Shown here piece by piece: positions 49,012-58,305 of a stretch of DNA of 64,000 nt; the first letter of the stretch is position 1; the number at the start of each line of letters is the position of its first letter. The notes under the pieces are model-generated. The model was not told where the DNA came from. It saw only the letters and a list, made by a program, of their open reading frames with translations, and ran no database searches. The stretch covers positions 736,001 to 800,000 of the forward strand of contig CAVRAO010000002.1 of assembly GCA_963719035.1 (NCBI GenBank). The letters are read 5' to 3'. A program made the translations under genes and the position numbers. The DNA comes from Methanobacteriota archaeon. Its GTDB lineage: Archaea > Halobacteriota > Bog-38 > Methanoflorentales > Methanoflorentaceae.

Positions 49012-49311
49012 ATGTATGATGTCGAATTAGAGCCGGAACCCATCAGGCGCATCCTAAACTGCCATAAACTCTTCGAAATTGTAAAGGTGTCCGTTGACCT
49101 CGGGATCTACACACAGATTGCGAGCCCTTTGACCGCGCAGCGCCTTTCACAGTCGCTCGGCATTGACGAACGTTTTCTTACGTTCTTACTTGAAACGTTG
49201 CGGCTAACTGGGCTGGTAGAACGCGTACAGGGCAATCACGAGTCGTGGGCGTACCAAAACACCCCGGTCGCTCAACAATATTTGAGTCAGGATAGCCCGT
49301 TGTACCTCGGC
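49012..49311 (+). pseudogene. 5' part (100 codons, dimerisation domain) of an O-methyltransferase family 2 gene, interrupted by the insert
   Basis: AAGGAG RBS. VDLGIY...LTAQRLSQSLGIDERFLTFLLETLRLTGLV...YQNTPVAQQYLSQDSPLYLG ends exactly where the A-run starts. Confidence 0.85.
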
Positions 49312-49500
49312 AAAAAAAAAAAAAAAAAAAAAAAAAAAAAAAAAAAAAAAAAAAAAAAAAAAAAAAAAAAAAAAAAAAAAAAAAAAAAAAAAAAAAAAAA
49401 AAAAAAAAAAAAAAAAAAAAAAAAAAAAAAAAAAAAAAAAAAAAAAAAAAAAAAAAAAAAAAAAAAAAAAAAAAAAAAAAAAAAAAAAAAAAAAAAAAAA
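49312..49500 (+). repeat. Homopolymer of 189 A
   Basis: Read directly; matches the 63 Lys codons in the ORF track. Confidence 0.95.
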
Positions 49501-50706
49501 TAGTGTAGGTGATGTGGTAGTGTAAGTTGGTTATTAGTATTGGTAGTTTTGTTTTACGGTTTGGTGTTACGGTTAGTTTGTTTAGTTTGATGATAGTGTG
49601 TATGGTAGTGTGCTGATGTTGGTAAGGTGTATTTAGTTGGTGGTGGGGTATAAGAAGTTTCAGTATAGTTTGTTGTTGAGAGTGATGAGTGGTGGTGTGT
49701 TGATGGGGATGAGTTTGGTAGTGTTGATGTTGGTTTTTGTGTTTTAGTAGGTGATTTGTAATGTGTTTGGTTTTGTGTTGGTTGAATTTTGGAATGGTAT
49801 ATTGATGATGTTTGTTTTTTTATGGTTTGTTTTTTGGTAATGGAATTTTTAGATTGGTATGTTTGTTAGGGGAGTATTATTATTGGTAGGTAGTAGTTTA
49901 GGTGGGTGTATAGATTTGGTGGGTGTGTGTGGTAGAAGGGGGGTGTTTTGTTTAGAGGAGTGGTGTTGTTATGTGATGTATATGATTGGGTTGTTTCAGT
50001 ATATGTTGTTTATTGATTGGTGAGTTGATTTGAAGGATATTTGTGTTGTTTTTTTAGTATGTTGTGTGATAATATTTATGTTATATTTGTGTGTTGGTGT
50101 ATGGTAATAGTAGGATAGGATTATTGTTTTTTTGATATTTGTAGTAAATTGATTATTAGTAAGTTGGTTATTGGAATGGAGGGGGGTTTTATGTATGGTA
50201 GAGAAGATGAGTAAGTGGTTTGGGTGAATGATTTGTTGGATTGTGTTGTAGTGTTATTGATTTTTTAAGAGTGGGGGTTTATGTAAGTTGTTGTTGTTGA
50301 GTATATAGGTGTTAGTAATGTGTTTGTTTATTGTTATTTTAGTTTTAGATAGTGGTTATGTTGTGAGATGGTTTTGTAGTTGGTGTGTTTGTTGGTGTTT
50401 TTGGTGTTTGTATTGTTGTAAGTTGTTGATTATGAGTTGATGTTTGAGTGTGTGTGTTTGTAAGTTGTGTATGATTTTTTTAGTATGAGTTAGGTTGATA
50501 TTGTTGTGATAGTGTTTGGTGTATTTTAATGGTAAGAGTATGTATGAGATGAGGACGTTTGGTAAGAGGGTTATTATGTATTGTTTTTGTGAGTTTTATT
50601 TTGAGATTTATAGTGAGGAGTGATGATGTTGAGTAAATATATGGAAGAGGTTATAGAGGTAGTGTGTTAGTGAGAGTAGATAGATATGTGGAGTGGTGTT
50701 AGAGTG
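49501..50706 (+). other. Cytosine-depleted tract (6 C in 1206 nt), apparent C->T conversion of high-GC DNA
   Basis: C only at 49557, 49570, 49613, 49661, 49997 and 50556. G is roughly a third of bases by eye. Normal C content resumes abruptly at 50707. Confidence 0.85.
50191..50530 (+). pseudogene. Cryptic XRE/Cro-C1 HTH regulator gene inside the C-depleted tract (3' end uncertain)
   Basis: GGAGG at 50178-50182 and ATG at 50191. Reading T as C/T allows ERGLTQAAVAEHIGVSNASVHRYLSxRQRPRRETALQLARLL, and the TAA/TAG codons become Gln. Confidence 0.65.
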
Positions 50707-50711
50707 CCGGT

Positions 50712-51370
50712 GTGACCGATGCGGTGCGCGACCTGACGCGGCACTATGAGGCCGTAGCTAGAAACGAGAAGATGGCTGCGGACGGGCTTCCAGAGCAAAG
50801 CCCAGGCCTTCGCCGGAGACGACATGGTGCCGAAGTCGAAGACCGCAGGCGTATGTGGGCAGAGGCTCGCGCTGCCGCTCATGCGGAAGTGAAGCGCTGT
50901 CAGGACGCGATGGAGGCGACGCTGAAGGTGCTCGACGCCACTCTGCAGGTCGCGGCTCTGCAGAAGCTCGACAAGAAGAGAGAGAGCGCGGCAAAGGAAG
51001 AGGTCATTCTGATCATAGGCGCCAGCTCTGAGCTCGCGCTGACTATCCTCGAGCTCGCGCAGCGCGACGATGACATCGCCGCGGTCGTCACCAACGGTAC
51101 CTGGCCCGAGTTCCTGCTGCGCTCCAAGGGCATCGGCGTGCAGCAGGCCAAGGACGCCGCCCAGCAGGCCGCCGGGTCGCGGCGGCGGCGGCAGCCACGT
51201 CGGCCGACCCGGTACGCCGCGCTGTCGGCGAAGCGATCAAGACGCTGGGCCCCGCGCTCGGCGGCGGCGGCGCCACCTACACCCTGACTCGGTTTGCCCT
51301 GGAGCACGCCGATGATGAGGCAGCGGCGCTTGGAGGCCTGGTCAGCGGCGATGGCGCCGGCGCGCAGTAG
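50712..51370 (+). CDS. Hypothetical alpha-helical protein of the insert; 5' end probably inside the converted tract; frameshifted
   Basis: GC3-rich codon usage. The upstream in-frame TAG at 50700 lies in the converted tract and could be CAG. Confidence 0.5.
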
Positions 51371-51390
51371 AACGGGAACGGCGACGGGTC

Positions 51391-57032: not shown

Positions 57033-57041
57033 AAGGAACAC

Positions 57042-57361
57042 CATGGCCATCACAGTACAGAACTTGCTGACAGGGGAGCAGCGGACCACGGCGGACCAAG
57101 ACAAGATCGTCTGGTACCTGCTCCACCAAGACACCTGGGCGATCCTGGTCCCCGACGCCGACCCCGGAGCGTGACACCATGACCGATAAACGCACGCGCA
57201 CGTACCAGCATGGGCTTTCGACGGAGATCCGCACCGTCGGCCCCGAGGAATTCGACTGGTACGAGAACAACCCGCCCTGGTACCGCATCGAGCCGACCAA
57301 GAAGCCCGAGGCGTACCCGCCGTCGCAGCGGCCGGCCAAGGCCGCGAAGCCCAAGGCCTGA
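57042..57361 (+). CDS. Two small hypothetical ORFs (about 57042..57173 and 57179..57361)
   Basis: AAAGGA RBS before ATG 57042; GC3-rich codons; closely spaced. Confidence 0.45.
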
Positions 57362-57402
57362 CCGCCTGAGGATCGCGTGGGGTACGTCGGTACCGACGCG
57401 AC

Positions 57403-57438
57403 GAGGCCCGCCGCCTATGTGTCGGGGCGGCGGGCCTC
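57403..57438 (+). terminator. GC-rich hairpin at the end of the insert's operon
   Basis: GAGGCCCGCCGCC, 10-nt loop, GGCGGCGGGCCTC form a perfect 13-bp stem; weak U tail. Confidence 0.6.
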
Positions 57439-57588
57439 TCTACGTTGTATCTGTCCGGGCGGCGGCGTAGCCTGTCCCCGGCAACCGGTCACGAAGTCCA
57501 GCGAGGCGCGGCGCTAAACGCGACTCGCGCAGCGGCCGCCCTTACCGGGGCGGCCGCTCGCGTGTTCGGGGCCCTACTCCTACCCTCT

Positions 57589-58305
57589 GACGCGCTGAAA
57601 GGCGCTAAAAACGGCCTCTACGTGCCACGTAATAAAGAAAGGTTTCAAGAAGATGGGCCCGGCACGCTGCTTGAGCACTTTGTAAAAGAGGGACCTTCCA
57701 ACGAGGTCATCAGCACGGACTATTGGACGCCCGAACTGATCAAGAAACTCGAAGTGACGGCCTTGCTCGGTGGAGTGCAAAGTGCCGTGAAGCACGTCAA
57801 TCTAGCTGGCCGAAAGCGTTTGCTCGACATAGGCGGCGGACACGGGCTCTACAGCATCTTCTTTACGAAAAAACATCCGGAATTGCGAGCATGTGTCCTC
57901 GATTTACCTCAAGTCATCAAGGTGACAAATGAAAACATCAAGCGTTACGATGCAGCCGAGAGCGTGCGCGCAATCGCCGGGGACTATCACACCTTCAGCA
58001 CAACTGAACGTTTTGACGCGGTGTTCTTAAGTAATGTCACTCCGTCACCAAGTGAACTGCGTTTACTGCTCAACAAGTCGCGCAGTTTCCTCAGCGACGG
58101 CGGCGTCGTCATCCTCCGAAGCTTCATATCTGACAGCACGCCAGATGTCTGGTCAGCAGCAATCACGCTCGAGCGGTACGCACGACGCGGCCAGCGTGGC
58201 TTTGCCCGCAACGACCTGGTTGCTGCGTTGCATGAAACGGAGTTTACTGACGTGAAAGACGTTTATGCGGCTGAGGGTGTCGTCATCATGTGCGCGACAA
58301 AGTGA
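57589..58305 (+). pseudogene. 3' part (SAM-binding domain) of the interrupted O-methyltransferase
   Basis: RLLDIGGGHGLYS, VLDLPQV, IAGDY, FDAVFLSNV. Same frame as 49012; the joined product is 338 aa. Confidence 0.85.

Follow-up and report, generated by a model that had tools for sequence, protein, structure and literature searches.

The 8,322-nt block that interrupts an O-methyltransferase gene in this archaeal contig probably arose technically, during long-read sequencing and the assembly of the reads, and is not the product of a new DNA-capture route. All positions refer to the window, the whole 64,000-nt stretch of DNA that was analysed. We consider a technical origin the most likely one because the foreign genes within the block carry indel errors, because the foreign DNA continues into other DNA in the public run X5, because all 17 genomes of the same genus lack the insert, and because the same assembly holds three other read-level faults (on contigs C12, C6 and C13). 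An earlier note on this DNA had proposed a candidate in-cell capture pathway; the indel errors, the read-sized cut from a replicon seen in X5 and the sister faults speak against that proposal, and the alternative that the note itself had named, an unrelated read spliced into the consensus, is in our judgement the better reading.

Where does the block begin and end? Residues 1-100 of the orthologs from three genomes of the same genus (G003, G006 and G007) share 67-84% identity with the product of the upstream host segment, and the product of the downstream segment is 74-82% identical to these orthologs and directly adjoins the N-terminal part there. Protein comparison showed that the counterparts of residues 1-100 and of KERFQED are contiguous in all three orthologs, in which the 15 residues DALKGAKNGLYVPRN have no counterpart. 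Likewise, in contigs of the public runs X1, X9 and X13, which come from three studies, the sequence ...CCCGTTGTACCTCGGC stands immediately 5' of 57634, and the empty site, GGC followed directly by AAAGAAAGG, is present in three same-genus genomes and in contigs of three public runs. The ortholog and run-contig evidence therefore sets the insert at 49312-57633, with its right junction between 57633 and 57634, and the host protein without the insert at 323 rather than 338 residues. The left edge given earlier stands, and the right edge, previously put at 57588, moves by 45 nt. Because 45 nt are 15 codons, the join across the empty site is in frame with either right junction.

Both host halves are parts of one O-methyltransferase according to Pfam, and the gene picks up at the exact next base, with nothing lost and nothing duplicated other than an AAA at the left junction that may belong to either side (0-3 nt of microhomology). 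The in-frame resumption claimed earlier is borne out, and a single block interrupts a single host gene. At the right junction an X5 contig diverges after 57631 and the host starts at 57634, and therefore the dinucleotide AT belongs to neither side (Table 1). No direct or inverted repeat of at least 14 nt is common to the two junctions, and no target-site duplication, terminal inverted repeat or att-like repeat of at least 14 nt was found at the insert ends, in agreement with the earlier description. The insert, searched as 49322-57633, had no match in any of the 17 same-genus genomes, nor did its foreign DNA at 50707-57631, and both flanks are adjacent on one contig in four of the 17 (G003, G006, G007 and G022). 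One letter at 58823 is missing in all three runs, and the host flank is therefore not error-free; the contrast in error rate between block and host flank rests on small numbers.

Table 1. Features of the interrupted host gene and of the block within it (window positions).
Feature	Position	Strand	Evidence
Host O-methyltransferase, N-terminal 100 codons, dimerisation domain, ends ...TAC CTC GGC	49012..49311	+	PF08100, E 1.4e-9
A189 without interruption; the host's AAA may equally account for the first 3 A	49312..49500	+	sequence read directly
C-depleted tract, interpreted as foreign coding DNA with C>T changed one for one	49501..50706	+	6 C in 1,206 nt
Foreign 67% GC satellite/phage-like DNA (6.9 kb), fragment of a longer replicon	50707..57631	+	gene content, X5 contigs
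Primase-polymerase/D5-type helicase, four frame pieces	51644..53826	+	Pfam NrS1-1_pol-like_HBD, D5_N; PHROG DNA primase, E down to 9e-35
Serine integrase; N-terminal resolvase domain intact, C-terminal part out of frame	54186..55412	+	PF00239, E 7.6e-33, residues 52-204
Small DNA-binding (small-terminase-like) ORF, 161 aa	55036..55521	+	phrog_19906, E 1.2e-5
Large terminase, several frame pieces in differing frames	55487..57032	+	phrog_7579/phrog_2 on 55487-55933, 56005-56277
AT filler, neither foreign nor host	57632..57633	+	X5 contig diverges after 57631; host contigs/orthologs start at 57634
Host O-methyltransferase, C-terminal 223 codons, starts AAA GAA AGG (KER...)	57634..58305	+	PF00891 Methyltransf_2, E 3.8e-13

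The order of parts reported earlier, an A-run followed by a C-free 1.2 kb and an intact high-GC element, is correct as an order, but the tract is not C-free (it holds C at 49557, 49570, 49613, 49661, 49997 and 50556) and the genes of the element are broken by indels. The A-run, like the C-poor tract, goes beyond what chance would give: apart from A189, A116, G18 and one A13, no homopolymer in the 2.19-Mb assembly exceeds 10 nt, and the A116 on C12 is the only other run longer than 18. The tract has the base composition A.20, G.33 and T.47, with G kept, and gives way abruptly to DNA of 60-74% GC at 50707. Its composition is that of the foreign element after C>T conversion, its k-mer profile correlates more closely with the converted element (r 0.93-0.97) than with the converted host (0.78-0.86), its A and G show a 3-base periodicity with z up to 6.9, and its pyrimidine-run lengths match those of the element. 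To judge from its letters, the tract appears to behave as C>T-converted foreign coding DNA, as the earlier note had supposed. No three-letter match to the tract exists elsewhere in the assembly, and a search for a native, unconverted copy found none, the nearest relatives being 53-64% identical. Four of the six residual C are found in two sequence contexts, an 11-mer and an 8-mer that each occur twice (P about 0.003-0.008 if placement were random), which suggests that the residual C are set by local context; conversion is about 99.5% in all other contexts and stops within a few bases.

The foreign DNA downstream of the tract is matched by X5 contigs in six pieces, which together cover 855 nt with 0 substitutions and 2 indels. 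One X5 contig agrees with it over 57463-57631 and then continues for 63 nt in other DNA that is absent from both the insert and the assembly. The right end is not an element end, and the foreign block is not a circular permutation. With no substitution in 855 nt, the substitution accuracy of the block is high. The primase-helicase gene lies in the pieces 51644-52192, 52084-52647, 52530-53189 and 53107-53826; in L005 it occupies one frame and is matched by the same four pieces, which implies three frame changes here, and an extra A after 52596 in the X5 short-read contig, inside the overlap of two pieces, restores the primase frame. Similarly, the serine integrase matches phrog_95 over residues 28-259 of 408 and loses its frame after about residue 260. 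The exact product of the 161-aa ORF is on record only from this contig, and the next nearest protein is 71% identical. Pfam and PHROG searches found no transposase in the block.

The same assembly, which scores 91% complete and 1.3% contaminated, contains other faults. On C12 an A116 followed by G18 takes the exact place of a stretch that in relatives measures about 1.36-1.46 kb and separates a sulfatase gene from its maturase gene, in a region ridden with frameshifts. On C6 a 781-nt purine-poor junk tract, which loses first A and then all purines, is flanked by a 115-nt direct duplication. Finally, the last 6,072 nt of C13 are foreign, of 62-71% GC and with bacterial ABC-transporter genes, and interrupt a NiFe-hydrogenase gene, with the join at the very base at which the matches of 13 relatives end; contig C8 takes up the host sequence at its end, overlapping by 6 nt. 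The screen of the assembly that the earlier note had called for yielded a second long A-run, on C12, but, that A116+G18 run aside, no other C-less stretch of at least 70 nt in the 2.19 Mb. Polishing was poorest in the parts of the assembly that hold the two A-runs.

We propose that host DNA and a foreign fragment of about 8.1 kb, the size of a read, came together in a single read or in very few reads; the fragment would derive from a phage or satellite of a high-GC bacterium in the same kind of sample. The assembler would then have retained the chimeric read in the contig backbone, and polishing would have been unable to remove the 8-kb block or to correct it well, leaving its indel errors in place. 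The A189 may represent a flat or stalled signal at the joint that was called as a homopolymer, and the 1.2-kb C>T stretch may go back to systematic miscalls, or to a damaged single strand, where the foreign fragment begins. From the error pattern of the assembly we infer that the data are nanopore-like long reads, and the block presumably has the support of a single read or very few. The exact return of the contig to the host may have a close analogue in the C13/C8 pair, in which a chimeric tail would sit at an assembly-graph node and the host continues on another contig from the same base.

This proposal is consistent with what is described for false chimeric nanopore reads, in which the signal is smoothed at the joint and low-complexity junk appears as insertions (PMC13141652). 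As in that account, two unrelated DNAs appear joined in one read, the joint is featureless (here A189, and on C12 A116+G18), and false insertion calls result; the block also shows uncorrected errors and a cut-out foreign fragment, and it has sister chimeras and junk joins in the same assembly, among them a second plain host-foreign chimera on C13. It is further stated that several adjacent reads can share one nanopore signal (PMC12862388). In contrast, the chimeras described in PMC13141652 are mainly inverted repeats and two-part joins, whereas in this contig the host gene returns at the exact base once the foreign DNA ends, and C is read as T over 1.2 kb of that DNA, on a platform deduced from the error pattern.

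Several observations nevertheless stand against an artefact. Exact next-base resumption of the host, the strongest argument of the earlier note, is not what two or three library fragments joined at random would give, and no technical route to it is demonstrated; the argument itself stands, and the in-cell capture drawn from it is not supported. The tract keeps its coding periodicity and apparently correct purines and is therefore unlike the plain junk of C6. In the literature consulted we know of no documented fault that converts only C to T over 1.2 kb and then stops sharply. The absence of substitutions in the 855 nt matched by X5 suggests that more than one read may lie behind the block. 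In addition, the host's complete Ku/ligase/phosphoesterase-PrimPol module would in principle be able to place such a fragment of foreign DNA into a break.

Taken in all its versions together, a real end-joining capture is unlikely. Its best version, which by itself is somewhat less likely still, holds that, in a minority of cells, bacterial phage or satellite DNA was joined into a chromosomal double-strand break by the archaeal Ku, ligase and PrimPol; both the A-run and the C>T stretch would then be read-level miscalls or damage to one molecule, and no part of the pathway. The host encodes the whole gene set of prokaryotic non-homologous end joining side by side at C11:57241-59898, comprising Ku (E 8e-35), an ATP-dependent ligase (DNA_ligase_A_M/C) and an adjacent phosphoesterase and LigD PrimPol gene (LigD_N and LigD_Prim-Pol). 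The exact resumption of the host gene, the 0-3 nt of microhomology (AAA), the 2-nt filler (AT) and the lack of a target duplication or of any shared repeat of at least 14 nt have the usual look of end joining, and a rare variant would show low read support. However, this version requires bacterial DNA within an archaeal cell and a separate, unrelated cause for the A189 and the C>T stretch at the joint itself, and the same assembly has the plain chimera on C13 and junk insertions. Moreover, capture of 8 kb from another domain of life is beyond what end joining is shown to do, and the join is known here from the assembly alone.

A fixed chromosomal event that combines tailing and deamination is less likely again, and we consider it very improbable. 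In this scheme a host 3'-OH was extended by about 189 dA by a template-independent polymerase, as runaway untemplated addition during Ku/ligase/PrimPol break repair, and was joined to a foreign single strand in which deamination (C>U) had already changed nearly every C of the 5' 1.2 kb, ahead of second-strand synthesis; the A116+G18 on C12 would be a second footprint of tailing, at a 1.4-kb deletion. The geometry fits, with a host 3' end, an A-run, a converted 5' part of the + strand and then unconverted duplex. Footprints of C deamination of the bisulfite or APOBEC type serve to map single-stranded DNA, and the tract resembles them in three ways: C>T is confined to one strand, leaving G, A and codon structure intact; conversion is near-complete; and the edge is as sharp as a border between single strand and duplex would make it. 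But such treatment has no place in genome assembly, and natural enzymes prefer certain contexts, whereas here former C/T positions read about 99.5% T whatever the context, four of the six surviving C sitting in repeated 8- to 11-nt contexts; we know of no natural deaminase with context-free conversion of that extent and a sharp stop. End-joining polymerases are known to add only a few non-templated nucleotides, which a 189-nt tail far exceeds, even though the host has a LigD-type PrimPol domain. LigD POL is credited with terminal transferase activity (PMC8656161). The G18 after A116 and the loss of both A and G in the C6 tract cannot be deamination, and they indicate a shared technical cause. 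The position of both A-runs in poorly polished sequence also speaks against this scheme.

A co-occurring reverse transcriptase, which the earlier note had suggested looking for, is likewise lacking, with 0 RVT_1 matches in the 91% complete genome. The product of the defence reverse transcriptase DRT9 is free, protein-linked DNA and not chromosomal. DRT9 carries out protein-primed poly-dA synthesis (PMC12483538) and thus shares long DNA homopolymers in prokaryotes with the block, but it is described in bacteria, and no RVT_1 match was found in this genome.

Ordinary mobile-element integration has next to no likelihood, whether by the element's serine integrase, whose gene is in the block (no att-like repeat or shared-core attL/attR at the ends, a right end that runs on in X5, and an integrase out of frame), by a transposon or insertion sequence (no terminal inverted repeat, target duplication or transposase), or by a retro-type, poly(A)-primed insertion. 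LINE-type target-primed reverse transcription and processed pseudogenes leave poly(A) at one end of the insert, as is seen here, but in this prokaryotic host the A-run lies 5' of + strand genes, with neither a target duplication nor, in the 91% complete genome, an RVT_1 match.

If the block were real, it would represent DNA uptake across domains of life by an undescribed route of tailing plus deamination, with a bearing on horizontal gene transfer and on archaeal break repair. As an artefact, it illustrates clearly how a single faulty long read can bring 8 kb of foreign DNA, together with invented sequence, into a gene, even in a public genome rated as high quality. Genomes can be screened for its signature, in which a very long homopolymer and a stretch without one base accompany a block about the size of a read that has foreign composition and many frame breaks.

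What are the limits of the insert, and what does it interrupt? The source assembly comprises 13 contigs (2.19 Mb), with the window at C2:736001-800000. The flanks are the two halves of a single O-methyltransferase gene, with the Dimerisation domain encoded by 49012-49311 and Methyltransf_2 downstream. In the orthologs of three same-genus genomes (G003, G006, and G007), SPLYLG is followed directly by KERFQED, and the match to residues 1-100 abuts the match that begins at 57634; these proteins contain nothing that corresponds to the 15 residues encoded by 57589-57633. Contigs of sequencing runs X1, X9, and X13 (three studies) carry CCCGTTGTACCTCGGC immediately upstream of 57634, and the empty site in host sequence reads GGC followed by AAAGAAAGG. 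In run X5, one contig agrees with the GC-rich DNA over 57463-57631 and then continues into 63 nt of different DNA. The ortholog abutment, the X1, X9, and X13 contigs, and the X5 divergence therefore place the insert at 49312-57633 (8,322 nt). The earlier note had described an insertion in this gene, which stands, while its right junction must move 45 nt further right. The host protein is then 323 aa. Host sequence shows zero loss and zero duplication at the insert, with ambiguity limited to the first three A, and the switch from the C-poor tract to 60-74% GC DNA takes only a few bases. Direct or inverted repeats of at least 14 nt linking the two ends were looked for and not found; the earlier note had likewise seen no target duplication, terminal inverted repeats, or att repeats. 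Both flanks are adjacent in 4 of 17 same-genus genomes (G003, G006, G007, and G022), and none of the 17 contains a match to the insert.

Features of the insert and of comparable sites in the source assembly
Feature	Location	Description
A189	49312 (start)	uninterrupted
C-poor tract	49501-50706	6 C in 1,206 nt; A.20, G.33, T.47
Foreign DNA	50707-57631	60-74% GC
Filler AT	57632-57633	neither host nor foreign
A116 and G18	C12:106267-106400 (L001:6267-6400)	directly consecutive, A116 first
C6 tract	C6:209073-209853 (L002:6073-6853)	781 nt; without A first, then without any purine (C/T only)
Duplication flanking C6 tract	L002:5958-6072, 6854-6968	115 nt, direct, 98% identical
C13 tail	C13:59441-65512 (L022:2441-8512)	last 6,072 nt, 62-71% GC; bacterial-type genes: oxidoreductase, ABC transporter ATPase, permease, NMT1-like binding protein
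End-joining module	C11:57241-59898 (L021:4241-6898)	co-oriented; Ku, ATP-dependent ligase, fused phosphoesterase and LigD-type PrimPol protein

The foreign DNA is a phage- or satellite-like module. Its genes all lie on the plus strand; they encode a fusion of an NrS-1-type primase-polymerase with a D5-type helicase, as well as a serine integrase, a large terminase, and a small DNA-binding protein. No capsid or tail gene is among the genes in the 6.9 kb present, and in this the block resembles a capsid-less phage satellite. Its nearest relatives are five metagenome contigs (58-64%) and one genome contig, L003, whose record title names an uncultured Thermoleophilia MAG (53% at the helicase). A near search of phage records gave no match, and a distant search gave only 53 weak matches of about 100-170 nt each, in the primase/helicase genes of actinobacterial phages (Microbacterium, Arthrobacter, and Curtobacterium); the exact 161-aa small DNA-binding protein is on record for this contig only. 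Because the 63-nt X5 continuation past 57631 is absent from both the insert and the assembly, the block is a piece cut from a longer replicon rather than a circle that was opened at its att site.

The C-poor tract behaves as converted coding DNA rather than as noise. Its composition is the same as that of the GC-rich element after C>T replacement (A.185, G.326, T.49), and its 2- to 4-mer spectra correlate with the converted element at r 0.93-0.97, versus 0.78-0.86 when host DNA is converted in the same way; replacing C by A or by G instead gave negative correlations. The 3-base periodicity of A and G reaches z 6.9 in the tract and z 0.8-13.9 in the converted element, whereas the junk tract on contig C6 has none (z at most 1.2). 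Mean pyrimidine-run lengths match as well (1.71 in the tract, 1.82 in the element), and the six remaining C are nonrandom: one pair shares 11 nt of context and another pair 8 nt (P about 0.003-0.008). When the tract was searched by three-letter BLAST on both strands of the whole assembly, it matched only its own place, with the remaining matches at or below 54 bits; the tract thus does not derive by conversion from host DNA or from elsewhere in the block. No native copy was found in viral contigs with two proteins or in metagenome contigs with an ORF adjoining the tract. The helicase-piece search yielded one genome contig (53%) and five metagenome loci (58-64%), which we rejected as the native template since they have diverged too far and lack synteny in their upstream regions. 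Degenerate translation (T read as T or C) against 102 upstream ORFs of relatives scored 354 at best, versus 349 for the shuffled control.

The contrast in error rate between the block and its host flank is real, but on small numbers. The primase-helicase lies in four frame pieces, all of which match one frame in locus L005; the serine integrase is out of frame beyond about residue 260, and the terminase gene is in pieces. Over 855 nt of the block, X5 short-read contigs show 0 substitutions and two indels, one of which, an extra A after 52596 within the overlap of two primase pieces, restores the frame. The host flank has one indel common to X1, X9, and X13 in about 2.4 kb. At its position, 58823, all three sets of contigs are one letter shorter, and a consensus error may have split a single host gene into the minus-strand ORFs 58451-58903 and 58839-59315, which overlap there. 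Fourteen runs from 8 studies share words with the query (0.05-0.09 of words), and four of the 14 (X1, X5, X9, and X13) were compared through contigs. Contigs of X1, X9, and X13 give almost no cover of 49420-57538, except for X13 at 52950-53655, where they fit in part only and are relatives of the helicase gene; missing cover is no proof of absence and was left out of the evidence, and the X5 contig depth of 2-4 is too low to compare host with insert.

Similar faults occur elsewhere in the same assembly, in which the homopolymers longer than 10 are A189, A116, G18, and one A13. At the A116 and G18 site, an arylsulfatase gene and its radical-SAM maturase gene are separated by about 1.36-1.46 kb in same-genus genomes, whose matches on contig C12 stop at the first A and resume after the last G. 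The surrounding 7 kb or so (sulfatase, maturase, SulP transporter) has many frame breaks and is native to the genus at 82-90% identity. The C6 tract borders a repeat that is multi-copy across the genus, with host sequence continuing after its flanking duplication; given this position, the duplication may reflect a join at the repeat border. On contig C13, the matches of 13 same-genus genomes end at 59440, within a NiFe-hydrogenase large-subunit gene. When the end of contig C8 is read in reverse complement, the remainder of the gene comes first, sharing 6 nt with the C13 host part. The two contigs are therefore really adjacent, and C13 ends in a simple chimera of host and foreign DNA, left dangling at a node of the assembly graph. 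A hypothetical end-to-end join of C13 and C8 would resemble the window: host, a read-sized foreign block, and host back at almost the same base. A high-GC island at C12:210251-214750 is 86-89% identical in G003, G006, and G007 and thus native to the genus, and we rejected it as a further foreign block. We also note that window positions 47000-48028 are a repeated element matching the end of C4 (28454-28801, 99%) and C10:5573-6258 (94%), a possible marker of joinable contig ends.

We consider it probable that the block is a technical artefact. A read-level fault would account for the loss of C here, the loss of A and then G on C6, and G18 after A116. Published work reportedly points to miscalls that are linked to modification and strand-specific. 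False chimeric nanopore reads are described in one study as having a smoothed signal at the joint and junk low-complexity insertions (PMC13141652), which fits the faults of this assembly, and another describes how one nanopore signal can contain several reads (PMC12862388). What speaks against an artefact is that the host gene resumes exactly, which we cannot derive from random joins. We can guess at routes to it: a stalled strand may have been captured again, the well may have changed, or one well may have held two pores; a motor protein in motion is not expected to wait. The letters "T ... A" at the junctions (A189-T left, A-T right) could suggest a dA-tailed, TA-ligated library fragment, and we give them no weight because the C13 chimera lacks them and the chance expectation is not small.

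The same exact resumption favors a real insertion by end joining on which read faults are superimposed, a reading we regard as unlikely, and the host has Ku, ligase, and phosphoesterase-PrimPol genes in a row. These form a complete end-joining module in an archaeon; a genome search showed one in-frame TAA in the Ku gene, and no RVT_1 gene was found in the host genome. More doubtful still is the capture pathway of the earlier note, in which a poly(dA)-tailed host 3' end was joined to a foreign strand with a deaminated proximal end. Terminal transferase activity, which LigD-type polymerases possess (PMC8656161), speaks for such tailing. However, the base losses in the window and on C6 and the G18 after A116 cannot all be deamination, and with similar faults elsewhere in the assembly the proposal is not supported. 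An ordinary mobile-element insertion, at a site without target duplication, is scarcely credible. The technical reading thus remains our preferred one, and it is most sensible to handle the block as a chimeric long read that has survived in a public assembly.
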